Assembly: GCA_025055035.1 (NCBI GenBank) | Contig: JANWZB010000002.1 | Location: forward strand, 3,000 to 66,999 | From: Candidatus Kapaibacterium sp. | GTDB lineage: Bacteria > Bacteroidota > Ignavibacteria > Kapaibacteriales > UBA4661 | Reading direction: 5' to 3' | Length of the DNA stretch: 64,000 nucleotides | In this document: in pieces, positions 13,892-60,447 of the stretch | Position numbering within the stretch: the first letter of the stretch is position 1 | Layout of the letters: each line of letters opens with the position of its first letter | The notes under the pieces: generated by a model | What the model was told of the DNA's origin: nothing | Database searches by the model: none | Seen by the model: the letters and a program-made list of their open reading frames with translations, nothing else | Made by a program: the position numbers and the translations under genes

Positions 13892-14537
13892 CCAATCAAG
13901 CTCTGAGTTTGTAAGCTTTTCTCTAGCTAACATTGAAAACAGGCGCGACTCAGGTACAGTAAGTTTCTAAGCCGACACTATTTCAGCTGGTTCGTTCCTA
14001 TAATGGATTTGACCAGCTACAGATGAAATTGAAATACTGTAGCTACACAGCATACAAAGTCAATCTAAGAATCATCTGAGTACAAAGCTATGATGAACTT
14101 CCTACTACCTATAGAGCTGTTCCTTTCAAGGTGTCGGCAGCTTCAGATTACAGCTATTGTTCTTATAATGTAGTATAGCTTTTTTAATCCTGGGTTCTTG
14201 TGCTATTGTGCAGCAGATCACAGGAATAGACATGCCGCCACCTGACAACTACCGGCCACGGTTTATTAAAGCAACACGCACATTTTCTTTGGACAATTTA
14301 GACGATGCAGTACTAGAAAATAAGCCGAATAGAACCCGTTGCCGCAACAAAAGTAAAAGTATACATGCATCTGATTGATTCCAACGGTACTACCTTACTG
14401 GCGCATGTTCAAACGCACACAAAAAGATATGGTGCGAAGTCATTGACCACGTCGATGGAGTTCACCAGACCATTAAAACATTTACCGTTCGTGAGTTCAG
14501 CAAAGCTGAGCGTAAGCCTCAGGCTATTGCCTTAGTA

Positions 14538-16214
14538 ATGGATTTTAGCGGTTCAATGGGTGAAGGTAGAGCAAATGCTGTCCAGCAGGCAGCATACAAC
14601 TTCATCACTCAAGTCAAGCAGCCTAACGATGCTGTTACTCTCATCAAGTATGATCACCAAGTGTCTATAGAAGCACCTTTGACAACAGACAACAAATTGC
14701 TCATCCAGAATCTTCTTGCAAAAAAGGGCTTAGAAGGATATGGTGGTCAAACAGCAACTTTCTCAGGAATTGCTCAAGGAATTCGTGAGTTAACAAAATC
14801 TACTCCTTCACAGCAGCGCGTTGTTATTGTCTTTACTGATGGCGATTACAACGCATCACAGGTTTCGAAAGACGATGTCATTCGTTTCGCTCGCGAGACA
14901 AATACGATTATCTGTGCAATCGATTTTGGATATAGCATTGGTACTAATCTACTAGAGGAAATATCACGTAAAACCAATGGCACATATCATCACATCTATA
15001 ACCGCTCAGAGTTTGATCTAGTGTTTAAAGACATTTACCGCCGATTTGAACAGTACTATCTTCTGGAGCTTGAACAATCGGACTTCGGAACTCACACTAT
15101 TTCCGTAAAGCTGTGCCCACCACAGCAAATCTCATCATCCTTTGCCAATATAAGAGCAACTGGATACTATGATAATACTCCATATCCGGGATCTGTCTCT
15201 CTTCTTAATGTGTTCTTCGATGCTGATAAATCAGTACTCAGACCAGAATCGGAAAAAGCTATTAACCAACTTCTAAACCTGATGCAACGCGACACTAGCA
15301 TAATTATAGAATTACGTGGTCATACTGACTCGCAGAATAGTACCAAAGACCCTCAGCATAACTTAAAACTATCACAGCGGAGAGCTGAGGCAGTACGCGA
15401 TGCTCTTATCAAGCAGGGCATCAGACCAGAACGTATCTTTGCAAAAGGATTCGGCGACTCTCAGCTCGTTGCAAGCAATGCAACGCCAGAAGGGCGTGCC
15501 CAAAACCGACGCACAGAGTTTGCTATTCTAGGACAAAGCTGCAGAGCCCGTATCGACTCATTGCTTAACTTACCCCCAAAACGTATTGAAGCCGGATTAA
15601 TACAGCCATACCCAAACAGCAATCTTTCCTCATTACCACTACCCTCTTGCAAACAAGAACCAGAATCTATTTCATCTTTTGAATACCAAGTATGGCAAGA
15701 AATCAATCTTGCTCGTACCAACCCAAAGAAATATGCCACTTATATCAAAGAGTACGCTCAGCAACTACACTATCCCTTACGCGAAGGACCAAGCATTATT
15801 GAAGAGGCAATTTCCTATATGGATACTATATCGCCTCGTCCGCCACTTCCCCTTGCAGGATGCTTATGCCTAGCTGCTCGCGACCATGTAAATGACACCG
15901 GACCCAAAGGTATTTGGGGACACTCTGGCTCCGATGGAAGCGATCCCTTATCTCGCTCAAAGCGTTATATAAATGGATATGCATGGGCTTGTGAGAACGT
16001 TTCGTATGGGCAGACTACTCCTCGTAATGTCGTTATTCAGCTCCTTGTGGATGACGGTGTCCCATCTCGTGGCCATCGGCAAAGCGTCATGTACCATCTC
16101 AATAAAGCTGTTGGCATTGCAGCTGGCACTCACTCTCAGTATGGAACAATGTGTGTAATAGTTTTTTCTCTACAGGAAATCAATGGTCTTAAAACACTCC
16201 CTATCAAAGACTAA
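14538..16214 (+). CDS. vWA–OmpA_C–CAP(SCP/PR-1) three-domain protein; N-terminus apparently disrupted
   Basis: vWA MIDAS LVMDFSGSM...TDGD. OmpA_C ELRGHTDSQNS...NRRTEF. CAP/YkwD-like C-terminus (GHRQSVMYHLNKAVGIAAG). No signal peptide follows ATG 14538. The upstream in-frame sequence continues the vWA beta-strand but carries a TGA at 14376. Confidence 0.75.
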   Translation: MDFSGSMGEGRANAVQQAAYNFITQVKQPNDAVTLIKYDHQVSIEAPLTTDNKLLIQNLLAKKGLEGYGGQTATFSGIAQGIRELTKSTPSQQRVVIVFTDGDYNASQVSKDDVIRFARETNTIICAIDFGYSIGTNLLEEISRKTNGTYHHIYNRSEFDLVFKDIYRRFEQYYLLELEQSDFGTHTISVKLCPPQQISSSFANIRATGYYDNTPYPGSVSLLNVFFDADKSVLRPESEKAINQLLNLMQRDTSIIIELRGHTDSQNSTKDPQHNLKLSQRRAEAVRDALIKQGIRPERIFAKGFGDSQLVASNATPEGRAQNRRTEFAILGQSCRARIDSLLNLPPKRIEAGLIQPYPNSNLSSLPLPSCKQEPESISSFEYQVWQEINLARTNPKKYATYIKEYAQQLHYPLREGPSIIEEAISYMDTISPRPPLPLAGCLCLAARDHVNDTGPKGIWGHSGSDGSDPLSRSKRYINGYAWACENVSYGQTTPRNVVIQLLVDDGVPSRGHRQSVMYHLNKAVGIAAGTHSQYGTMCVIVFSLQEINGLKTLPIKD

Positions 16215-17621: not shown

Positions 17622-17642
17622 GACTTACTTGTAGCAAGAAGA

Positions 17643-18143
17643 TGTGGAAAACTTGGTGAAAAACTTCTATTCTTGTGGAAAAGTTAAGGTGATTAACGAT
17701 TACCACTTCTTTTTCTTTCAAATGTTTCCTGTGCTAACTTACTATCTTATGTTCGCTATGCTCTTATCACATTGTGTAAGCATCGGAGTGCAAGATACTT
17801 CTATGCCAGTGAATAACCAAGATGAGTTTTACACATATCTCTATAGCTACGTTTTCCACATATTTTCCACCTATGTGAAAAACTTTGTGGATATACGGCA
17901 GGAAAGCTTTTGAAAAACTTCGGACTTTTTCTGGCAAAATCAATCTGATGTCTATTTTTCAACTTTCCATGAGCATAACTTTCACTCTAATTAACATTAT
18001 ACACACAACCTTCACTACGCTTTGCTACGCTATAAGTTTCTGTTATGTATTAGCTATTAGGAAGTTTACACAGCGTTTTCCACTTTTCCACAGTGTAAAC
18101 TTTTAGTACAATGTCTCATATATGCTTATATCATATATGCTTA
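17643..18143. promoter_or_regulatory. AT-rich intergenic region with seven DnaA-box-like 9-mers and a tandem 13-mer repeat (candidate oriC-like/DnaA-regulated element)
   Basis: TGTGGAAAA at 17643 and 17674. TTTTCCACA at 17852. TTTTCCACC at 17863. TGTGGATAT at 17886. TTTTCCACT at 18076. TTTTCCACA at 18084. Tandem TCATATATGCTTA at 18116-18128 and 18131-18143. Only low-complexity short ORFs here. Confidence 0.5.
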
Positions 18144-18282
18144 GACATACCAACATGTGCAATGCTTTTCTAGGCAGAATCTGACTAGAGGAACTGCTAA
18201 ATCTTGTATTTTTGCAGTAAAACAGCCCCAATTATTATACTACATACCACGCTGTATCACAATTCTACAACTTTACAACACT

Positions 18283-27996: not shown

Positions 27997-28173
27997 ATAT
28001 ATTGAAGTTTGTCGTGAGCTGCCAAAGTGATATTTTTATGGGCTTAATTCTTGTCGCAATACTTTCAAATAGTGCCCTTCGCTATGATGTTGTGTGCTGT
28101 GCGTTGCTTCCATATGCTGCGTTGTGTGTGGAAAACATCATTGAAAACAGCATGTTGTAGCATAATGTTGCTG

Positions 28174-31100
28174 ATGTGCCAGAACCTGCAACGACTACAC
28201 ATCTCGCAATGCGGAGGAACTCTTCTAGTGTTGCTGCTCTCATCTGTACATGTATTGTACACGCAATCTTTAACGCTTTTTGATGTCAATGCTTCGGCGT
28301 TTCCTGTGGTCCGAGCAAAGTTTTTTGCTCTCGATGCTGACGGAAAACCGCTAACTGATATATCTGCTCGTGATGTTGTTGTGCGAGAGCATGGGGTCCC
28401 CCGAACTGTAACAGCTGTTGTGTGTTCTCCACAGCAGAGCACAGTGCGGTCTCTCTCTGTTGTTTTGACAATTGATGTTTCAGGTTCAATGAAAGAAGGA
28501 ACTTCGGGCGTTTCGCATTTGTCCTTAGCACAAGCAGCTGCACGTGCATGGGTGCAGGCTATGCCTGAAGAAAATGTCGAATGTGCAATTACAAGTTACG
28601 ACCACATAAGCTATCTCAACCAAGATTTTACACAAGACCGTAAGCGTCTCCTTAAAGCTATCGCTAATTTGAAGCCTCAAGGGGGAACAGATTATGATGC
28701 AGGACTTCTCAGACCGCAAGGAGGAAGCTTGTTCGTGATGCAAAATGCTAAGTATAGTCGCCGTATCGTCATTTTTCTTACAGATGGACAAGGCGGAGGA
28801 ACTGAAGAGCAAATAATTGAAGTAGCAAAAAGCGATGGCGTGAGCATATACTGTATTGCTGTTGGTATGCCTGCACCCGAAATTCTACGCAATATTGCAC
28901 GCCAGACAGGAGGAGAGTGCTTCGATAATATTACAACAGTTCAACAAGCTGAGCAAATCTACCGTATTCTGTTACAATTTGCTCTTGGGAGTAAGCCATG
29001 CGAAGTATCATGGCTCAGCGAGCAGACATGTAGTGTCAGCCGTGTGCAAGCAACACTATCGCTCCCTGCACGCCTACTCTCCCATGCGTTTACCTACGAG
29101 ATTCCCGCAAAAGCTGTCAAGGCGCTAGAATTTTCGAGCGAAAACATTACCTTTGGTGGAGTTCCTCCGGGAAAGTCGCGAGAGATGCGTTTAGTTCTAC
29201 GTGCACGTAATAGTGCGTTTACCGTTAATAGTATTGAGAGTTCAGATGAACGATTTAGTGTAACACCGACGTACTTTACCCTGAAGTCTGGACAGCGTAA
29301 AGTCGTTACTGTAAAATATACTCCTACAGATTCAGGATATGCCTTTGCGACACTAACAGTGAACGATAATGTATGTGGGAACCACACTCTGTATGTCAGT
29401 GCAGGATTCCCTGGAAAAAAGCCTCAGCAATCCACATTGAAGTTGTTAGAGCCAAATGGTGGTGAGCAGTATGTTGCTGGGTGTGATACGGTGATTCGTT
29501 GGCAGGGAATTACGCCATCGGAGGCTGTCAGTATTGAGTTCAGCGATGATAATGGTGCATCGTGGCAGAAAATCATTCCTGCTACAAGTGGTCTGCGAAC
29601 AGATTGGCAGATACCCAAAACTTCAACAACTAGAGCACTTGTTCGTCTAAGGCAGCTTCAATCGCCTACATTTTCTCATTTCAAAGACCTCATGACAAGT
29701 GCTGTCTTTCTGCCCGATAATCGTACAGCTGTAACACTTGGTTCAGGAGGAGTTGCGCGAGCATGGAATCTCGATAAAGGTACAATGGGGCAAATATACT
29801 TTAGCAACCAGTTTGGTCAGCGTAAGAGCACCCTACTTCCCGGTAAGCTTGTCGTAACACCGCAGGGCGAATACGTTATTGGCGGATTTGATGAAGGTAC
29901 TGTGCGAATTTGGGACGCTGCAAGTGGCGACTTAGTGGATGTATACTACGATCATGCCGATGCAATTACTGCATTGCGGTTCTTCCCGAGTGATGGGAGC
30001 CGTGTAAGCCGTGTTCTTACCGCAAGCCTCGACAGTACTGCACGAGTATGGTACATAGAGAACGCAGAAACTGCACTTGTGCTTAAGCATAACGGCCCTG
30101 TATACGATGCTGTTGTTTCACCTGATGGTTCTCTTATCGCGACAGCTGGTGGTGATAGTGTTGCTATGCTGTGGGATGCGAAAACAGGCGAGTTACTCTA
30201 CAGGTGCGAAGGACATACGGATGTTGTCCTAAGCGCTGCATTTTCGCCGGACAGTAAGAAGCTTTTGACAACAAGTGCTGATGGAACAGCACGAATCTGG
30301 GATACACGCAAAGGAACACAGCTGGAACGATTCACAGGACATAGAAGTGTTGTATATATGGGAATCTTCTCGCCCGACGGGGAGCGTGTTGTGACGTGTA
30401 GCGCTGATAGTACTATCAAGGTATGGAGTGGCAAAGGTGGAGGATGGATCCAAAATCTACGAGGGCACCAGGGTATTGTAAGAAAAATTATGTTTGTACC
30501 TAATAGTTCAGCGATACTTTCAAGTGTGAGTTCTGATAGAACAGCAAGAATATGGGATTTATCTGCAGGTCGTACAGTCCAAATTCTTGGAGGTGTTGAA
30601 GCACGCAGCAAATCCAGCGTTGGAAGTGGAATAGGCATAGCTGATGGGCATACTGGTGCAGTGTACGATATGGTATTTTCTCCTAATGGTGCGTATGCAG
30701 CTACAGTAGGCACTGACCATAAAGTGTATTTTTGGAGAATAAATACAACAGCATCAGTCTCTGCTGGAAGTATTTTTCGATCTAGCCCTTTAATTTGGGC
30801 GCTTGACACCACTGCTGTACAAGAAGCTATCTCTGCTGCTCCATTTACTATTACTCAGCCTCGTTTTTCTGTTAAAAGCATTGATATGGGGCGGCAACTG
30901 CGTGGGGACAGCAAGGATTCTGTTATTGTAGCTTGTATCCAAAATGAGGATAATACTCCTTTGCGCATTGATGAGTTGTCATTTCTTGGTAGTGCGGCAC
31001 AGGACTATAGTATTGTGTCAGGCGGAGCGCCGTGTATCGTACCCCCAAAAGGTTCTCGTAATCTGGAAGTACGCTTTAAGCCGTGCTGCGTGGGCGGGAG

Positions 31101-32907
31101 ACCAGCACAGCTTCGGATTGTCTCTCAGTCAGATGTGCGATATGTATCTGTGACAGGAGCAGGTGTATCGCCACTTATCGTTGTTATGAATCGTAGTGTA
31201 GATTTTGAAGAGGTGAAAATTAGGCAATACCGTGATACTGTAGTTACTGTGTTAAAAAACATTAGCCTACAGCCTGTTATTATTACTGGTATTTCGTTCA
31301 TTGGTCCTAATACAACGGATTTTCGCCTTGTGGGGAATGCATCGCAAATTATTCGTACAGATACATCATATATTTTGTACCCAAATGCTACACTGTCGTT
31401 GCGCCTACGGTTTAAGCCTACAAATAGTGGGCGTACTTCTTGTCAGATGAATATTGAGTATAGTGGATTAGGTAGTCCTGCAACAGTTCAACTGTTTGGT
31501 ACAGGGAATTCAGCACTCTCTGCATATATTCAGCCATTTGGTGTAAAGCCTCATCCAAGCTCTAGCCGTAAGGATAGCGTTGAATATCCAATACAAGCTT
31601 TACGCGTGGAGGAATTCCTTGCAACAACTATGCATCCACTCTTGAACTATATATTCTTTGACAACAACTCATTTACTCTTCCACGCCGTTATAATCAGCT
31701 TACACCAGAGCAAGCACGTCGCTTGATAGAGACGAAACAAGCATTTGAGAAAGTTCTTTCTGCACAATCGACGCTTGATGTGTACAGGAATGTGCTCAAC
31801 ATTATTGGTAGCCGCATGCTCCTTTATCCTTCCTCAATGCTGACGATTGTTGGGTGCAAATCAGGAAAAGAAAAGTTCGTAATTCCGGCCACACAGGCGC
31901 GAGTACTTGCATTATCAGCAAGCAATGCTCAAACAATTACAACAACGCAGGCAAATATGGTACCAGCAACAACTTCTCAGTTGACGCTAGTTGAGCACGC
32001 AAGTATCTTACAAAAGCTTACGGCTCAAGATGATATGCGCCTTTCAGAAGCACGAGCCCTAGCAGTGCGTGAGTATCTTCACACAGTATGGGGAATTCCT
32101 GAGGAACGCATGCCGATTCAATTCCGAGGGCTACCAGAAAAGTTCTCTAATGAGCAAATACCTGATGGCATAGCAGAAAACCGCCGCGTCGAATTGATTC
32201 CTTCTATACCAGAGCTTACGGCAACGGTTCTTGCTCAAGATACGCTAAGGGTTGTCGTGCCACCTGTTGTACGCTTTCGCACAAATGCACTCTCGCAAGC
32301 AAATCTTACTACATGGAATGTTGCAGTAGTACAAAGCACCGGTTCTAGGTCCCGAAAAACAACTCAAATCCTCAAAACTGTTTCTGGTACGGGAAAACCG
32401 CAGGAGCGCATAGAATGGAATACAGAGCGAGAGGTATCAACAGCGCCAAAGCTTACCGTTCCTGTGCAATATAGTTTGAGTGTAAATGATGATAGTGGTG
32501 CAAATACTATAGCTTCGGGTAGTTTACCGCTGGAGCTTATCTCGATTTCTAAAAAGCGTGCGGCGAAGGCTGCAGATAAGGAGGTCAATACGTTTGGTTT
32601 GCTACTGTTTGATTTCAATAGAGCAGAGATTACGGGTCAAAATGCCAATGTACTGGAATTTGTTCGTAAACAAATACTTCCCGAATCTCGTGTGAGTATT
32701 GTAGGCTACACAGATCGCACTGGTAGTAGTCTCCTAAATAAGTCTTTGTCTCTTCAGCGAGCAAAGGCAGCAGCAAGCGCACTCAGTCGTCCTGATGCTC
32801 TTGTGCAGGGGCGTGGGAGCGACGGTTTGCTGCATGATAATACGACACCAGAGGGAAGGTTCTACTGCCGAACGGTAAACATTGTTGTAGAAAATGCTAT
32901 ACGCTAA
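28174..32907 (+). CDS. Giant exported multidomain protein: signal peptide – vWA – Ig-like – WD40 beta-propeller – Ig-like – 2x OmpA_C-like
   Basis: vWA MIDAS TIDVSGSM...TDGQGGG. At least six WD40 blades (GHTDVVLSAAFSPD...ARIWD, KVWSG, ARIWDLS...). Two C-terminal OmpA-like domains (...NRRVELIPS and VGYTDRTGSSLLNKSLSLQRAKA). Start taken at MCQNLQRL... (28174), a plausible signal peptide. The listed ORF start 28051 is probably over-extended. Confidence 0.75.
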   Translation: MCQNLQRLHISQCGGTLLVLLLSSVHVLYTQSLTLFDVNASAFPVVRAKFFALDADGKPLTDISARDVVVREHGVPRTVTAVVCSPQQSTVRSLSVVLTIDVSGSMKEGTSGVSHLSLAQAAARAWVQAMPEENVECAITSYDHISYLNQDFTQDRKRLLKAIANLKPQGGTDYDAGLLRPQGGSLFVMQNAKYSRRIVIFLTDGQGGGTEEQIIEVAKSDGVSIYCIAVGMPAPEILRNIARQTGGECFDNITTVQQAEQIYRILLQFALGSKPCEVSWLSEQTCSVSRVQATLSLPARLLSHAFTYEIPAKAVKALEFSSENITFGGVPPGKSREMRLVLRARNSAFTVNSIESSDERFSVTPTYFTLKSGQRKVVTVKYTPTDSGYAFATLTVNDNVCGNHTLYVSAGFPGKKPQQSTLKLLEPNGGEQYVAGCDTVIRWQGITPSEAVSIEFSDDNGASWQKIIPATSGLRTDWQIPKTSTTRALVRLRQLQSPTFSHFKDLMTSAVFLPDNRTAVTLGSGGVARAWNLDKGTMGQIYFSNQFGQRKSTLLPGKLVVTPQGEYVIGGFDEGTVRIWDAASGDLVDVYYDHADAITALRFFPSDGSRVSRVLTASLDSTARVWYIENAETALVLKHNGPVYDAVVSPDGSLIATAGGDSVAMLWDAKTGELLYRCEGHTDVVLSAAFSPDSKKLLTTSADGTARIWDTRKGTQLERFTGHRSVVYMGIFSPDGERVVTCSADSTIKVWSGKGGGWIQNLRGHQGIVRKIMFVPNSSAILSSVSSDRTARIWDLSAGRTVQILGGVEARSKSSVGSGIGIADGHTGAVYDMVFSPNGAYAATVGTDHKVYFWRINTTASVSAGSIFRSSPLIWALDTTAVQEAISAAPFTITQPRFSVKSIDMGRQLRGDSKDSVIVACIQNEDNTPLRIDELSFLGSAAQDYSIVSGGAPCIVPPKGSRNLEVRFKPCCVGGRPAQLRIVSQSDVRYVSVTGAGVSPLIVVMNRSVDFEEVKIRQYRDTVVTVLKNISLQPVIITGISFIGPNTTDFRLVGNASQIIRTDTSYILYPNATLSLRLRFKPTNSGRTSCQMNIEYSGLGSPATVQLFGTGNSALSAYIQPFGVKPHPSSSRKDSVEYPIQALRVEEFLATTMHPLLNYIFFDNNSFTLPRRYNQLTPEQARRLIETKQAFEKVLSAQSTLDVYRNVLNIIGSRMLLYPSSMLTIVGCKSGKEKFVIPATQARVLALSASNAQTITTTQANMVPATTSQLTLVEHASILQKLTAQDDMRLSEARALAVREYLHTVWGIPEERMPIQFRGLPEKFSNEQIPDGIAENRRVELIPSIPELTATVLAQDTLRVVVPPVVRFRTNALSQANLTTWNVAVVQSTGSRSRKTTQILKTVSGTGKPQERIEWNTEREVSTAPKLTVPVQYSLSVNDDSGANTIASGSLPLELISISKKRAAKAADKEVNTFGLLLFDFNRAEITGQNANVLEFVRKQILPESRVSIVGYTDRTGSSLLNKSLSLQRAKAAASALSRPDALVQGRGSDGLLHDNTTPEGRFYCRTVNIVVENAIR

Positions 32908-52302: not shown

Positions 52303-52467
52303 CGAACAAGCATTTTGGAGATTGCTGCATTGATTGTTGGATTAATTGATTTGATTATGTGCTTGCTTACCTGTAAATTCGCAAGTGTAGCACGTAGCAC
52401 TAAACGATCACGTGGCACTAAACAACTTTGTGCGATTCGACTATACTTATTCTAAAAGGAGTACATA

Positions 52468-52578
52468 ATGAGAACAGCCCGAGCAATATTACTTGGCGCT
52501 TATATAGCAGCTTTCGTCAGTATAGCAACTACATATGCATATGCTGGCGGAGATAATTGTAAAGACAAGAGCTGTTGA
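52468..52578 (+). CDS. Small secreted peptide precursor (36 aa; predicted mature GGDNCKDKSC)
   Basis: Strong SD AAAGGAG 8 nt upstream. Signal peptide MRTARAILLGAYIAAFVSIATTYAYA, with an AxA cleavage site. TGA stop is immediately followed by an A10 tract. Confidence 0.45.
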   Translation: MRTARAILLGAYIAAFVSIATTYAYAGGDNCKDKSC

Positions 52579-52693
52579 AAAAAAAAAGTGACGAAAACGG
52601 CGAAGAAGGCAAAAACTGAAAACCAGTCCAGTGAAGCGAAAAAATCCTAAAACCATAAAAACCTCTTTAGTAGTTACATAAACATTAGAGTAG

Positions 52694-52728
52694 GGCTTCT
52701 TTTCTCTCCTAGAGAAGAGAAGCCCTTA
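52694..52728. terminator. Bidirectional terminator hairpin (15-bp stem, 1 mismatch) between small-peptide gene and pruA
   Basis: GGGCTTCTTTTCTCT cctag AGAGAAGAGAAGCCC. Confidence 0.55.
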
Positions 52729-52750
52729 TCGTATTAGGTGTGTAATCCTG

Positions 52751-56865: not shown

Positions 56866-59800
56866 TCATTTGTGTTGGAATAGTTTGGTTATGCGTAGCG
56901 TAGTATCGAGCAAGCGTTCTCGCACACTCAGTAGACCCAACGATAAAAGCACGGTGAAGATTGTCATGCATATCAAAACAACCGCATTATAGCAGACAGT
57001 CGGCACGTACTTCTGGGAAAAGAACATACGCTTCTCATGAATTAGCATTGGATAGTCGAAAAGTCCGATGTGCGCTTGGGTCATTACTCCGCCAGTGCTA
57101 TCAAGGGCTTGTAGCATAGCGTGGAGCTTATCCTGTGCTTCGAGCACCTGACGGTGGATTTCTTGATTTCCATACTTATCTTGAAACTGTAAGCGGTGCT
57201 GCTCGACCGCAGAATCGAGAGAAGCCTTGTTTTGTTCATAAGCGTCAATTTCTCGCTCTGCTCTTTCAATACTTTGATTGAGTTGTACAAGTTTAGTCTG
57301 CAGTTCGGCGCTTAGTGTGGAGGAGTCGGCTTGAGCAAGGAGAGAGTTACGTTCTTGTAGTGCCGCGTCACGTTCATCGTAAACACGTAGAATATTTTTT
57401 GCTGGCGCCTGCAGTTCATCATCCCTACTTTGGAAACGATTATACCTATCTTGCATCGTTATTAAGCCTTCGTATGCCCAGCGTGCTGGGATAAGCTGGC
57501 AAATCTCTGGGATTTCGCGTGTAGTGTTGAACTTTAAGTGAGTCATCTCGCTGTATGGAATAAGAGCGCCCCCAAAGATGATTTGGGGAATGAGAACAAG
57601 GGGTACAATGTTAAATGCTGCTTTTGCTGACAGGTTCGGTAGCGCTGATATAAGGAGTCCAGTTGCTATACCAACAATCGAAACAAGAGTAAGAAATAGT
57701 AGGTACGCAGCATGAAGTTCTTGGAGCTGCAGTATCGGAAAAGCAGCTATGATAAAGAGAGCGTTTTGCAGCAATGCAAAGACAACGAGCGTAATGAACT
57801 TCGATGCATAGTAGCTGAGGTTGCCAATATTCAGCATCCGTTCTCGCAGAAGAACAGCAGCGTCTTTGATGATTTCATCTATACTATTGGTAATTGCTAG
57901 AAATGTTGCAATGATAACTGCCAAAAATATGAAGATGGCAAGGTTGTCGTTTTGAAAGAGATTGTATTCGGCATCGATGTCGGCTGCATGCCGCAAAATG
58001 AAGCTTACAGCAAGAGCAAGAGCTGGTGCTTCAAAAAATGTAATAATGAGATTAGAGCGGTCGCGAAACTTGTTGACAAAGTTCCGTTGTAAGAGAGTAG
58101 TAAATTGTCGCCACTTTTCGCGCAAAGAGAGTTCACGAGGCTGTGGAAGTGAGACGCGTTCGGAGTCTTCTATTGTTAGGCGGTGTACAGAAGCACGAAA
58201 ATCCAGAAACTTTTCCTTCCAGTACATTGGTGTGTATTTACGCTGAGACAGGGGCACACCATCAATATCCCGCAAGGGTTCTTCGAGCGTTTCGAGCAGC
58301 AAATCCGGTTCAACGTTTTTACATACAGGACACTCAACCATTTCAGCAGCAACTTCGGGGTTTACAGGCGAAGCAGAAACGTGAGACTCAAGAGAATGAG
58401 TTTTAAAGTATGCTAGTGCTGCCATTGTGTCGCCAAAAAATGCAGTTTTTCCTCCTTTGTCTAGGAACAAAATCTTATTGAACATCTTGTATATCTTGGA
58501 GCTTGGCTGATGAATAACCACAAAAACAATCTTACCTTTGAGTGTTAAGCGCTGGAGTAATTCAATAATTTTTTCCGAATCTTTTGATGATAAGCCTGAT
58601 GTTGGCTCGTCAAGAAAGTATACATCTGCATCAGCTAAAAGCTCTAAGCCAATATTCAAGCGCTTACGCTGTCCTCCTGAAAGAGTTCGTTGTGTTGGGC
58701 TTCCGACCTTGACGTTGCGCTTCTCTACAAGATCGATATCTACAAGTGTTTGCTCGACAAGAGTACAGATTTCTTCATCGGACATATCGGGATGTCGAAG
58801 TCGAGCGTTATACATCAAGTTTTCATAAACTGTTAGATTTTCAAACAATAAATCATCTTGCGGTACATACCCTAGATAGTCTTTAAGTGCTTGGTAGTCG
58901 TGGTGAAGATCGTAGGCATTGATTTCGATATTACCGTCATTTGGTTTATTGTAGCCATTCATAATATTTAGCAATGTAGATTTCCCGCACCCTGAAGGAC
59001 CCATAACGGCGACAAGGTCTCCATAGTCAATCTCAAACGAGATATCATCGAGGGCAAGAGTGTTATCTTGGAAAGAGTAACGAACATTTCGAGCGATAAA
59101 ATCGCGGAAGCGAAATGGTTCGGAGCGTACTACACCTCCCAAGAACGAGCAATGGAAGACTTGCTTGGAGATAAAAATGTGGCACTCGGCAGGAAGAATT
59201 TGGGGCTTCTTTACTGCTTTCCCATTGTAGCCGATGCGATGAGGACAACCACGCGGGTCAAGAATATACTCTGCCGAGCTAGCATGATCCTTGCGAGTAA
59301 CGGTGATGTGCCACTGTTTTGAAAGACCATCATGAAAGATAGCATCGCATTCCGCATGATTTCCAAACGTGAACGATGGCTTTTTGGGATCGAACGTGAA
59401 GACTTCACTTTCGAGACCATATTGAAACGCAAGCTTACGGAGGTTAATTGGGCAGTTTCCAATTAGAACGCTGTCATTCAAGTTAACATATACTTGTGTT
59501 TCTACAGGGCGTCCGTTCACAACAAGCTGATTGGCAAGCTTTCCCAAGTCGGAATCTGTAACACCAAGCGGTGTCAGAATAATAAAGAGCTTGGTAAATT
59601 CGATGAGCAAGACGTCGTCCATACTAGGCATTTGCGAGAGAACAAACTCTGTTGTTCTACGTTCGGGGTTGATTCGACGCGATACGAATAGAGCAAATCC
59701 GAGTAGGGTTTTTGTTTTAAGGTGAAAGTAGTAGCTTAGGTCTTCGAAATTGATAGTATAGCTATCAATCGAAATGGACTGATTGTGCTGAATTTTCGTT

Positions 59801-60447
59801 GCATTGAGCAAATTTCGCGATGTCTTGCCAGCAATAGGAACGTTGCCAACTTTCACAAGATGTTTGTCATTCTTTTGAAGAATGATGTAGATACTGCGGA
59901 TTTTGAATATTTCTACGTCAAGGAGCGGAAAGGGCAATACAATATCGAACAGCTGCGGGTCGTCGCCAATAGTGATAGAAATTATCTCAGACTGTTTTGC
60001 TATTTCTAGTGTTTCTGTAGAAGGTAGGTCGTAGATGCTTTCTACTTTGCATATGTCGGGGTCAGTCAATCCTATCATGCGTCCAATTCTCCGTGCCGTT
60101 TCGCGTTCTACATCGTCCATCGTATCCGAAGCCGCAAGCTCATAAACTTTCATCAGGATAAATACACGGTTTTCGTAGGAAAATCCCGTACGAATTTGAG
60201 CTGCTGCTTGCTCTGCATCAATATTTTCCGAGAGAAAGTACTCAAATTGCTTGTAGAGATACTCTGCAACAGGAGCATGATAAATGGACGTGAGATAAAA
60301 TCGCACGTAGTCACGCTCTGCCTGCGAAACACTGCTATCCGCTTTAGCAAGCAAGCTAAATAGCTTGACAGTGTTGATAAGAAGCGAATTACCTAAGCTC
60401 TCTTTGAGCGTAGAGGCTTGAGAAGTATCATGAGCGTGAGAAATCAT
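56866..60447 (-). CDS. TerB-like – FHA – FHA – ABC ATPase – ABC-2 permease fusion (ABCG/White-type half transporter, Rv1747-like architecture) with C-terminal coiled coil
   Basis: N-terminal TerB-like repeats (KADSSVSQAERDYVRFYL / ASDTMDDVERETARRIGRMIGL). FHA-like segments (FTFGNHAECDAIFHD..LSKQWHITV...NGKAV). NBD with Walker A GPSGCGKST, signature LSGGQRKRL, Walker B VYFLDEPTSGL and H-loop VIHQPS. Six TM helices, then a coiled-coil region and a terminal TM helix. Confidence 0.8.
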   Translation of the reverse strand: MISHAHDTSQASTLKESLGNSLLINTVKLFSLLAKADSSVSQAERDYVRFYLTSIYHAPVAEYLYKQFEYFLSENIDAEQAAAQIRTGFSYENRVFILMKVYELAASDTMDDVERETARRIGRMIGLTDPDICKVESIYDLPSTETLEIAKQSEIISITIGDDPQLFDIVLPFPLLDVEIFKIRSIYIILQKNDKHLVKVGNVPIAGKTSRNLLNATKIQHNQSISIDSYTINFEDLSYYFHLKTKTLLGFALFVSRRINPERRTTEFVLSQMPSMDDVLLIEFTKLFIILTPLGVTDSDLGKLANQLVVNGRPVETQVYVNLNDSVLIGNCPINLRKLAFQYGLESEVFTFDPKKPSFTFGNHAECDAIFHDGLSKQWHITVTRKDHASSAEYILDPRGCPHRIGYNGKAVKKPQILPAECHIFISKQVFHCSFLGGVVRSEPFRFRDFIARNVRYSFQDNTLALDDISFEIDYGDLVAVMGPSGCGKSTLLNIMNGYNKPNDGNIEINAYDLHHDYQALKDYLGYVPQDDLLFENLTVYENLMYNARLRHPDMSDEEICTLVEQTLVDIDLVEKRNVKVGSPTQRTLSGGQRKRLNIGLELLADADVYFLDEPTSGLSSKDSEKIIELLQRLTLKGKIVFVVIHQPSSKIYKMFNKILFLDKGGKTAFFGDTMAALAYFKTHSLESHVSASPVNPEVAAEMVECPVCKNVEPDLLLETLEEPLRDIDGVPLSQRKYTPMYWKEKFLDFRASVHRLTIEDSERVSLPQPRELSLREKWRQFTTLLQRNFVNKFRDRSNLIITFFEAPALALAVSFILRHAADIDAEYNLFQNDNLAIFIFLAVIIATFLAITNSIDEIIKDAAVLLRERMLNIGNLSYYASKFITLVVFALLQNALFIIAAFPILQLQELHAAYLLFLTLVSIVGIATGLLISALPNLSAKAAFNIVPLVLIPQIIFGGALIPYSEMTHLKFNTTREIPEICQLIPARWAYEGLITMQDRYNRFQSRDDELQAPAKNILRVYDERDAALQERNSLLAQADSSTLSAELQTKLVQLNQSIERAEREIDAYEQNKASLDSAVEQHRLQFQDKYGNQEIHRQVLEAQDKLHAMLQALDSTGGVMTQAHIGLFDYPMLIHEKRMFFSQKYVPTVCYNAVVLICMTIFTVLLSLGLLSVRERLLDTTLRITKLFQHK

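Follow-up and report, generated by a model that had tools for sequence, protein, structure and literature searches.

Why should a protein built of domains that belong outside the cytoplasm be recorded as starting inside the first of those domains? At the locus studied here, in a window of 64,000 nt (the whole stretch of DNA that was analysed), the only ORF with a canonical start is a 558-aa frame at 14538-16214 (+), which GenBank carries in two records as a plain CDS named 'OmpA family protein'. The first-pass annotation of this DNA had described an exported VWA-OmpA-CAP protein whose 5' end is disrupted and which, as recorded, has no signal peptide. Pfam confirms all three domains, each above its gathering score: VWA with 67.6 bits (cut-off 23.8), OmpA-like with 79.8 (cut-off 27.2) and CAP with 32.4 (cut-off 21.1). 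The first-pass annotation had also placed ATG 14538 within the VWA domain's first beta-strand, and indeed the Pfam match begins 3 residues before that Met. The residue is the conserved internal Met of 'ALVMD', kept in 91% of 119 homologues, and it falls in strand beta-1 (strand E126-133) of the AlphaFold model of homologue P0002. With strand beta-1 upstream of its start, the annotated product does not contain a complete VWA fold. The DFSGS motif, read from the sequence at 14541-14555, has D and S residues that are invariant across the aligned homologues.

Upstream of this start, the frame of the ORF (frame A) stays open for 53 codons, from 14379 to 14537, and holds no ATG, GTG or TTG. Before it come a TGA at 14376-14378 and a short frame-A ORF that runs into that TGA (14208/14232-14378), all as previously described. 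What did not survive comparison with homologues is the idea that the TGA is the lesion. The intact homologues P0002-P0006 are lipoproteins of 491-506 aa, 55-64% identical to the repaired protein, and their first ~135 residues match the window in frame A, then frame B, then frame A again: frame A over 14172-14318, the +1 frame (B) over 14320-14388, and frame A once more from 14388. Because intact homologues match in these shifting frames, we conclude that the window carries one extra A in 14317-14320 and lacks one base at 14388/14389, a pair of indels 70 nt apart.

Both one-base length changes were located by protein alignment and by DNA alignment. At the upstream site, the DNA alignment with the P0002 gene shows a 1-base gap independently of the protein alignment; at the downstream site, it shows a 1-base gap in the window, after which the frame is back to A. 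A profile built from the 119 homologues matches frame B at 14308-14430 (i-E 6e-7), and by hand count on the alignment 18 of the 23 residues of the middle segment are identical to P0004, the invariant R, Y and H among those it carries. Of the flanking frame-A segments, the upstream one has the family-invariant Cys, D, PP, Y and P, and the downstream one keeps the invariant W and C together with all columns conserved at 90% or more. Scored against the same profile, the repaired protein reaches 640.6 bits, the frame-A read-through 595.7 and the annotated ORF 493.0, so the 5' homology signal is far more than chance would produce. Every column conserved at 90% or more upstream of ATG 14538 is kept in the repaired protein. 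No repeats or paralogous DNA were found within the 64-kb window. An earlier suggestion that the pre-VWA segment resembles that of a 1618-aa protein encoded at 28051-32907 held up poorly: a single BLASTP alignment joins the two (24% identity, E 2e-8), and it owes its score to the VWA domain, reaching the pre-VWA segment only by extension.

The 5' end shows a further break. The lipobox-like segment without a start codon noted earlier is present as SIAFLILGSC at 14172-14201. The Cys of ILGSC, encoded by TGT at 14199-14201, aligns with the family-invariant Cys; a frame-A TAA (14166-14168) lies 10 codons upstream, with no start codon between. Ahead of the lipobox, just one hydrophobic stretch starts with an ATG; it begins at 14090 in frame C and probably belongs to the lipobox. 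A third +1 shift probably cuts this stretch from the lipobox; bracketed by the TAA of frame A on one side and the TAG of frame C (14171-14173) on the other, it would have to fall near 14168-14172. A nonsense mutation or a lost start codon are alternatives to this third shift. In the homologues, the parts of a lipoprotein N terminus (an SPase II substrate), from the start codon through a positively charged n-region and a hydrophobic h-region to the lipobox Cys, share one reading frame, which is not the case here. Signal peptides are too variable for alignment. The features of the locus are collected in Table 1.

Table 1. Reading-frame segments, lesions and domains at the VWA-OmpA-CAP locus (positions in the window).
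Feature	Position	Strand	Basis or remark
Probable original ATG ATG start, followed by the n-region and initial half of the h-region of the lipoprotein signal peptide, frame C: MMNFLLPIELFLSRCRQLQITAIVLIM	14090..14173	+	Ends at TAG 14171-14173
Putative third lesion: one extra base, frame C to A	14168..14172	+	Inferred
Frame-A segment SIAFLILGSC AIVQQITGIDMPPPDNYRPRFIKATRTFSLDNLDDAVLE, start of N-terminal beta-sandwich	14172..14318	+	Gapless alignment to P0002-P0006
Lesion 1: AAAA where intact relatives imply AAA, frame +1	14317..14320	+	Protein alignment needs L-E-I-S-R
Middle segment, 23 codons, homologous only in frame B: ISRIEPVAATKVKVYMHLIDSNG	14320..14388	+	119-homologue profile
'In-frame TGA': last base of ATT (Ile) and first two of GAT (Asp)	14376..14378	+	Out-of-frame artefact
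Lesion 2: one base lost after GGT (Gly) and before AC, the remainder of a Tyr codon; intact form would be GGN TAC	14388..14389	+	Alignments
Frame-A segment YYLTGACSNAHKKIWCEV...ERKPQAIALV: remainder of the N-terminal domain, then the larger part of VWA strand beta-1	14388..14537	+	Homologue alignment, profile
VWA domain with DxSxS signature (DFSGS) of candidate MIDAS metal site	14526..15038	+	Pfam PF00092, 2.1e-18
558-aa ORF, start at conserved internal Met	14538..16214	+	GenBank MDW8218958.1 / MCS6807261.1
OmpA-like peptidoglycan-binding domain	15213..15509	+	Pfam PF00691, 2e-22
YkwD-type CAP domain, in-frame C-terminal fusion	15840..16160 (Pfam coordinates)	+	PF00188, 1.8e-7

The TGA is a by-product of reading the middle segment out of frame, and TGA recoding is therefore no issue at this locus. 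The intact P0002 gene has the same CTGATTGAT string over the site. A role for TGA as a sense codon is rejected: in the homologous frame the triplet straddles the codons ATT and GAT, and TGA serves as an ordinary stop in this genome, ending 6 of the 48 ORFs, including the upstream YfhO-family gene. The recoding option raised in the first-pass annotation was set aside on these grounds. More generally, a +1/-1 indel pair in conserved sequence can create the semblance of an in-frame stop that is nothing but an out-of-frame reading, and comparing the remaining frames with homologues settles such a stop at once.

Programmed recoding could also be imagined at the indels themselves, with ribosomes shifting +1 at 14316-14320 and then -1 at 14386-14389 to make a full-length lipoprotein, or else by read-through or recoding of the TGA. 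We consider this extremely improbable. Its sole support is that the two shifts compensate and that the 23 codons between them stay perfectly conserved in the +1 frame. Against it, there is no slippery heptamer (at neither site, CUA GAA AAU or AAC GGU ACU, could a tRNA re-pair once the frame has changed), no stable RNA fold downstream (z-scores of 0.43, -0.62, -1.12 and 0.75 versus shuffled controls) and no Rfam match in the 5' region. All homologues examined use a single frame, transcriptional slippage would call for a longer run than A4, and the signal peptide is severed from its start as well. Genes with programmed frameshifts, such as prfB (+1) and dnaX (-1), likewise change frame within conserved coding sequence; unlike them, this locus has neither slippery site nor stimulator, its relatives are unshifted, and it combines two opposite shifts with a third break. 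If the lesions were real and an exported full-length lipoprotein were made all the same, two opposite ribosomal shifts would be needed (+1 at GAA-A, -1 at GGU-A), together with one more event, at the signal peptide. That is scarcely credible; if true, it would amount to a multi-site recoding switch governing a surface protein.

The 558-aa ORF might instead be the functional gene, encoding a VWA-OmpA-CAP protein that is cytoplasmic or otherwise routed. In favour of this are its length, an undamaged frame and well-conserved domains, and both records annotate it as a CDS. Yet it begins at a conserved internal Met, without VWA strand beta-1 and the N-terminal half of the beta-sandwich, and it joins three domains of extracytoplasmic type with no signal peptide. 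Comparison with orthologues, which had been proposed as a check for an intact signal-peptide-bearing N terminus, points the same way: all homologues have a lipoprotein signal peptide and about 100 residues upstream, and none starts at the equivalent of ATG 14538. The upstream region is present in 12 of 12 aligned homologues and is covered by the 119-homologue profile. As the upstream 450 nt still encode the N-terminal region perfectly, they were part of the gene until very recently, and we regard a functional truncated ORF as very unlikely.

These data indicate that the gene is an ordinary dead or mis-recorded gene, entered in GenBank as a normal, shorter protein. Since every strongly conserved residue is present after repair, the damage is either very recent or not real. 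Of these, we lean towards real and very recent inactivating mutations in the hot-spring population, so that the locus would be a young pseudogene, carried in GenBank as an ordinary CDS; the lesions are most likely present in the DNA and not in the consensus only. A gene for an envelope lipoprotein of the family type would have acquired single-base length changes in its first ~300 nt, namely the extra A, the missing base and probably the extra base near the lipobox. As recorded, it can make no exported full-length protein; the 558-aa product would come without a signal peptide or strand beta-1 and with only half of the beta-sandwich, and would presumably be non-functional. We favour a pseudogene over a consensus error because a second GenBank MAG, from 2022, has the identical truncated protein. 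The same 558-aa product appears in MCS6807261.1 (2022) and MDW8218958.1 (2023), on two contigs of at least 50 kb with the same neighbours, and from the identical truncated protein call we infer that the second contig shares the lesions.

The alternative is that the gene is intact and that the two or three one-base length changes were introduced locally during assembly, for example by a few Nanopore reads in a MEGAHIT hybrid assembly, and kept through reassembly. We consider this unlikely, though a real possibility, and several observations weigh on its side. The window's MAG, 'GB_hybrid_bin.87.strict' (contig JAVQWN010000002.1, whose coordinates are those of the window plus 2,999), comes from a hybrid Illumina and Nanopore R10.4 assembly of a Malaysian hot-spring biofilm; Nanopore reads entered that assembly. 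According to the source paper, only Illumina reads went into the reassembly that gave the final '.strict' bin, which argues against such an error. Cover of the organism is thin in at least one Illumina run, where the Logan contigs measure just 1.9-3.4 kb. Reassembly in metaWRAP hands the original contigs to SPAdes as untrusted contigs, so sequence derived from long reads could persist in places with few short reads. Each of the two sure lesions has a short homopolymer context (A4, and TT to T), a typical site of sequencing error. The damage consists of 2-3 single-base indels within ~220 nt, is nearly length-neutral (+1/-1) and comes with no substitution damage and no lost conserved residue beside an intact 1.7-kb ORF; such clustering is unexpected under neutral decay and resembles a local consensus error. 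The second MAG, which counts against an error by carrying the same truncated call, is not an independent sample, as the two assemblies were probably built on the same Illumina libraries. Placeholder names in the source paper's table (SKYG9, SKYB132; sp02505xxxx) indicate that the 2022 series of MAGs came from this spring too, as a previous deposit.

Uniform indel noise across the assembly is rejected. Outside the locus, coding sequence makes up 90% of the window, which has 48 ORFs of at least 100 aa and no other split or frameshifted gene in its 64 kb, and two Logan contigs assembled separately from run SRR15826902 align to 5.2 kb of it with a single mismatch and no gap. Both findings also speak against a consensus error. 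Logan look-ups with the small frame-A ORFs over the lesion gave no match, and the contigs of this strain in that run lie elsewhere. For the same species, GTDB representative genomes yielded no confirmed match and JGI metagenomes only two distant OmpA matches, and a protein search with the repaired N terminus returned no fragment near 100% identity. If the young-pseudogene reading is right, it is conceivable, though very improbable, that the clustered inactivating indels were fixed because loss of the surface protein was advantageous, for instance as a phage or predator receptor. Either way, a 558-aa 'OmpA family protein' that starts inside a beta-strand merits a frameshifted-pseudogene flag or a sequence correction. 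The locus poses no challenge to current understanding.

Judged by its sequence, the locus falls into a large family of predicted envelope lipoproteins, as yet uncharacterised, from Kapabacteria and Ignavibacteria. Their common plan is a signal peptide with lipobox Cys, a ~100-aa N-terminal beta-sandwich, a VWA domain with a MIDAS motif and an OmpA-like peptidoglycan-binding domain. The repaired protein is colinear with VWA-OmpA lipoproteins of Kapabacteria, Ignavibacteria and Bacteroidota (P0002-P0006, for example) from the lipobox Cys to the OmpA-like domain; it differs from them in the frameshifted 5' end and in an extra C-terminal CAP region of ~175 aa. The gene neighbourhood is also unlike that of P0002 or P0003. 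The VWA-OmpA homologues go by names such as 'OmpA family protein' and 'OmpA-like peptidoglycan-associated protein/Mg-chelatase subunit ChlD'. Assignment to a named NCBIfam family failed, with all matches under cut-off (best YiaD, 96.9 bits versus 175).

Among proteins of known type, Pal, YiaD, YfiB and the C-terminal domain of OprF share the OmpA-like C-terminal domain and the lipoprotein anchor but lack the large VWA module found here. Solved OmpA-like domains match homologue P0002 at 1e-21 to 1e-13, among them the C-terminal domain of OprF (PDB 5u1h) at 1.3e-21. The P0002 model (pLDDT 89.9) consists of N-terminal strands, the VWA domain and then more strands. Its best fold match is inter-alpha-inhibitor heavy chain 1 (ITIH1, 6fpy), a VWA domain with a beta-sandwich (E 3.9e-12 over 369 columns), and archaeal ArnB (5a8j, 8s05), whose VWA domain is likewise embedded in a beta-sandwich, is also among the best. 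With 11-14% identity and global TM-scores of 0.28-0.34, the resemblance of either to the model is one of fold alone.

The C-terminal CAP fusion appears to be unique to this VWA-OmpA protein. Among the matches listed, none of the 119 other homologues has a CAP domain, and the best ten multi-domain matches checked, from a search of 1.84 billion cluster representatives, included no OmpA-CAP fusion and were CAP repeats. This lineage would have added a YkwD-type CAP domain to the end of the family plan, and the beta-sandwich-VWA-OmpA lipoprotein family with its CAP fusion may merit study if the gene is intact or was lost recently. Stand-alone bacterial CAP proteins (YkwD-like, ~200-240 aa, PF00188) are 40-47% identical to the C-terminal 175 aa, whereas the CAP domain of this protein follows an OmpA-like one in a fusion. 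The similarity runs from the linker just 5' of the Pfam start nearly to the stop codon; the invariant His, Asp, Glu and Cys columns of the CAP domain are kept, and 40 invariant columns are held in common with 8 stand-alone CAP proteins.

At this locus no ORF but the 558-aa frame at 14538-16214 (frame A) has a canonical start, and Pfam detects VWA, OmpA and CAP domains in it. The VWA match reaches three residues upstream of the Met encoded by ATG 14538, which is the conserved Met of 'ALVMD' (in 91% of homologues) and lies inside strand beta-1. Upstream of 14538, frame A runs on without a stop for 53 codons, back to a TGA at 14376-14378, with no ATG, GTG or TTG in that interval. This TGA closes a short frame-A ORF (start at GTG 14208 or ATG 14232), and a lipobox segment, SIAFLILGSC (14172-14201), is preceded by a TAA (14166-14168) and has no start codon. 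On re-reading the sequence, we found the first-pass annotation's description of these features to be accurate. In GenBank (MDW8218958.1 and MCS6807261.1) the shortened ORF is entered as a normal CDS for an 'OmpA family protein', not as a frameshifted pseudogene; its neighbors are a YfhO-family gene on one side and an M20 peptidase gene on the other.

Querying with the 611-aa translation yielded 1,330 relatives, the best of which, besides the annotated protein itself, were VWA-OmpA proteins of 491-506 aa. Comparison with orthologues, as the first-pass annotation had suggested, revealed an intact N-terminus in all five closest relatives (P0002-P0006): a Cys-terminated lipoprotein signal peptide, followed by about 100 further residues before VWA. 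The whole of this pre-VWA region is encoded in the window, but as three pieces (see table). With one A removed from the run at 14317-14320 and a base inserted behind 14388, the protein alignment to the homologues became gapless. The repaired protein is 55-64% identical to the five closest relatives over its full length and retains the invariant residues (C, D, PP, Y, P, R, Y, H, W, C) as well as, upstream of the ATG, every column with at least 90% conservation. The +1 frame was matched at 14308-14430 by a profile built from 119 homologues (i-E 6e-7), and profile scores were 640.6 bits for the repaired protein, 595.7 for the frame-A read-through and 493.0 for the annotated ORF. Plain DNA alignment against the gene for P0002 put a gap of one base at each of the two repair sites.

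Features of the locus and of other window genes
Feature	Coordinates	Strand	Description
Piece 1	14172-14318	+	frame A, ends ...LDDAVLE
Piece 2	14320-14388	+	+1 frame, reads ISRIEPVAATKVKVYMHLIDSNG
Piece 3	from 14388	+	frame A again, reads YYLTGACSNAHKKIWCEV...
CAP region	15588-16211		YkwD-type, in-frame behind OmpA-like domain
1618-aa ORF	28051-32907	+	N-terminal VWA, WD40 beta-propellers, Cep192-D4-like domain, C-terminal OmpA-like domains
1193-aa protein	56866-60447	-	N-terminal TerB fused to ABC transporter ATPase and ABC-2 membrane domains

The TGA straddles two codons, taking its T from the end of ATT (Ile) and its GA from the start of GAT (Asp), and the string CTGATTGAT is also found in the intact P0002 gene. 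As these codons are conserved and the string is common to an intact gene, the TGA is not a mutation but frame A's reading of conserved codons. Thus, the first-pass annotation was right that the gene is broken, but the in-frame TGA it blamed is not the lesion: the frames shift instead, the homologous frame there being +1, and the recoding it had considered is unnecessary. As recorded, the locus is an unremarkable case of a frameshifted gene, and its annotation is in error.

No start codon precedes the lipobox in frame A. A hydrophobic stretch led by an ATG occurs solely in another frame (frame C); it begins at ATG 14090, reads MMNFLLPIELFLSRCRQLQITAIVLIM and stops at TAG 14171-14173, and it can be joined to frame A only within 14169-14171. 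The join would give a lipoprotein signal peptide of 37 residues, which is long; some family members (P0006, P0035, P0084) have 30-32 residues before the Cys. We infer a putative third lesion at the signal peptide, an extra base near 14168-14172; alternatively, there may be a nonsense mutation, or the start codon may have been lost. A sigma-70-like site, TTCAGA-16-TATAAT (14142-14169, plus strand, 10 of 12 matches), lies within the broken signal-peptide region, its TATAAT overlapping the frame-A TAA stop and adjoining the putative third lesion. Bacteroidota-group promoters differ from this consensus, and the site may be due to chance.

The window is positions 3,000-66,999 of JAVQWN010000002.1 (assembly GCA_033578975.1). 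From the accession range and from Table S1 (PMC11071339), this is the MAG 'GB_hybrid_bin.87.strict', which GTDB assigns to Kapabacteriales (family UBA4661, genus PH2015, species sp025055035). The 25 'GB_hybrid' MAGs were assembled with MEGAHIT from Illumina NovaSeq and Nanopore R10.4 reads, and the '.strict' suffix denotes metaWRAP reassembly with Illumina reads only (PMC11071339). We lean towards a real, very recent pseudogene. A consensus error, with length changes that are not in the real DNA, is the less likely reading, although Nanopore reads went into the hybrid assembly, the lesions are single-base, clustered, nearly length-neutral and in short homopolymer contexts, and the gene is without other decay. 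Such an error could also have come through the reassembly, as metaWRAP gives SPAdes the original contigs as untrusted input. However, reassembly of the '.strict' bin used Illumina reads (PMC11071339), and the same 558-aa product was already present in a 2022 record. The identical product stands under two accessions, MCS6807261.1 (2022) and MDW8218958.1 (2023), each on a contig of at least 50 kb with the same neighbors; as an intact upstream region would give a longer gene call, the truncated call counts toward a real lesion. Table S1 carries the placeholder genera SKYG9 and SKYB132 and species 'sp02505xxxx' (PMC11071339), names suggesting that the 2022 series came from the same spring and was deposited earlier; probably it is the Illumina-only MAG set.

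Recoding, whether ribosomal or at the TGA, is not supported: neither site has a slippery sequence, four stretches fold no better than shuffled controls (z-scores 0.43, -0.62, -1.12 and 0.75), the only Rfam matches in the window are two tRNAs, and every homologue examined is in a single frame. TGA also stops 6 of the 48 ORFs, including the upstream YfhO-family gene.

General sequence noise was rejected: coding sequence fills 90% of the window, which has 48 ORFs of at least 100 aa and no other split gene, and two Logan contigs (run SRR15826902) aligned to 5.2 kb of it gaplessly, with a single mismatch. Of the gaps in the window, the one at this locus (646 nt) is the largest; the non-coding gaps at 52303-52750 (448 nt) and 17622-18156 (535 nt) gave no match to a tRNA or to Rfam.

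An AlphaFold model of P0002 (m244eb0b89100; 68-sequence alignment, pLDDT 89.9, pTM 0.86) comprises, in order, a signal helix, seven strands at 43-118, VWA (beta-1 at 126-133), three strands at 304-340 and the OmpA-like domain, so that beta-strands flank VWA on both sides. Its closest folds combine VWA with a beta-sandwich, as in ITIH1 (6fpy, E 3.9e-12) and ArnB, followed by single-domain VWA and OmpA-like matches. A product from ATG 14538 would be without the export signal, the N-terminal strands and beta-1, and we infer that it would neither fold nor reach the envelope.

The C-terminal ~175 residues are 40-47% identical to YkwD-like CAP proteins (~200-240 aa), with conserved columns kept; while those proteins are CAP alone, here CAP is fused behind the OmpA-like domain, continuously in one frame. 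All 119 other listed VWA-OmpA homologues lack CAP, and when the OmpA-plus-CAP portion was searched against 1.84 billion cluster representatives, CAP repeats rather than OmpA-CAP fusions made up the best multi-stretch hits checked. The VWA-OmpA-CAP architecture appears specific to this lineage. No NCBIfam model reached its own cut-off, leaving the family without assigned function; domain content predicts a likely role as a peptidoglycan-tethered, metal-dependent cell-envelope binding protein.

The family (P0002-P0120) is large and uncharacterized, its hits falling in Kapabacteria, Ignavibacteria and Bacteroidota. Gene neighborhood is not conserved among the closest homologues (regions L011 4675-7485 and L002 1960-3435): P0003 is directly 3' of a 441-aa OmpA gene, and the P0002 gene comes after a CUB/Por_Secre_tail protein, with another VWA-OmpA gene 3 kb off. 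Within the window, the 1618-aa ORF has an unusual envelope architecture. The pre-VWA resemblance to this giant paralogue noted in the first-pass annotation is real but weak: identity to the repaired protein is 24% (E 2e-8), driven by VWA, with the alignment extending into the pre-VWA segment.
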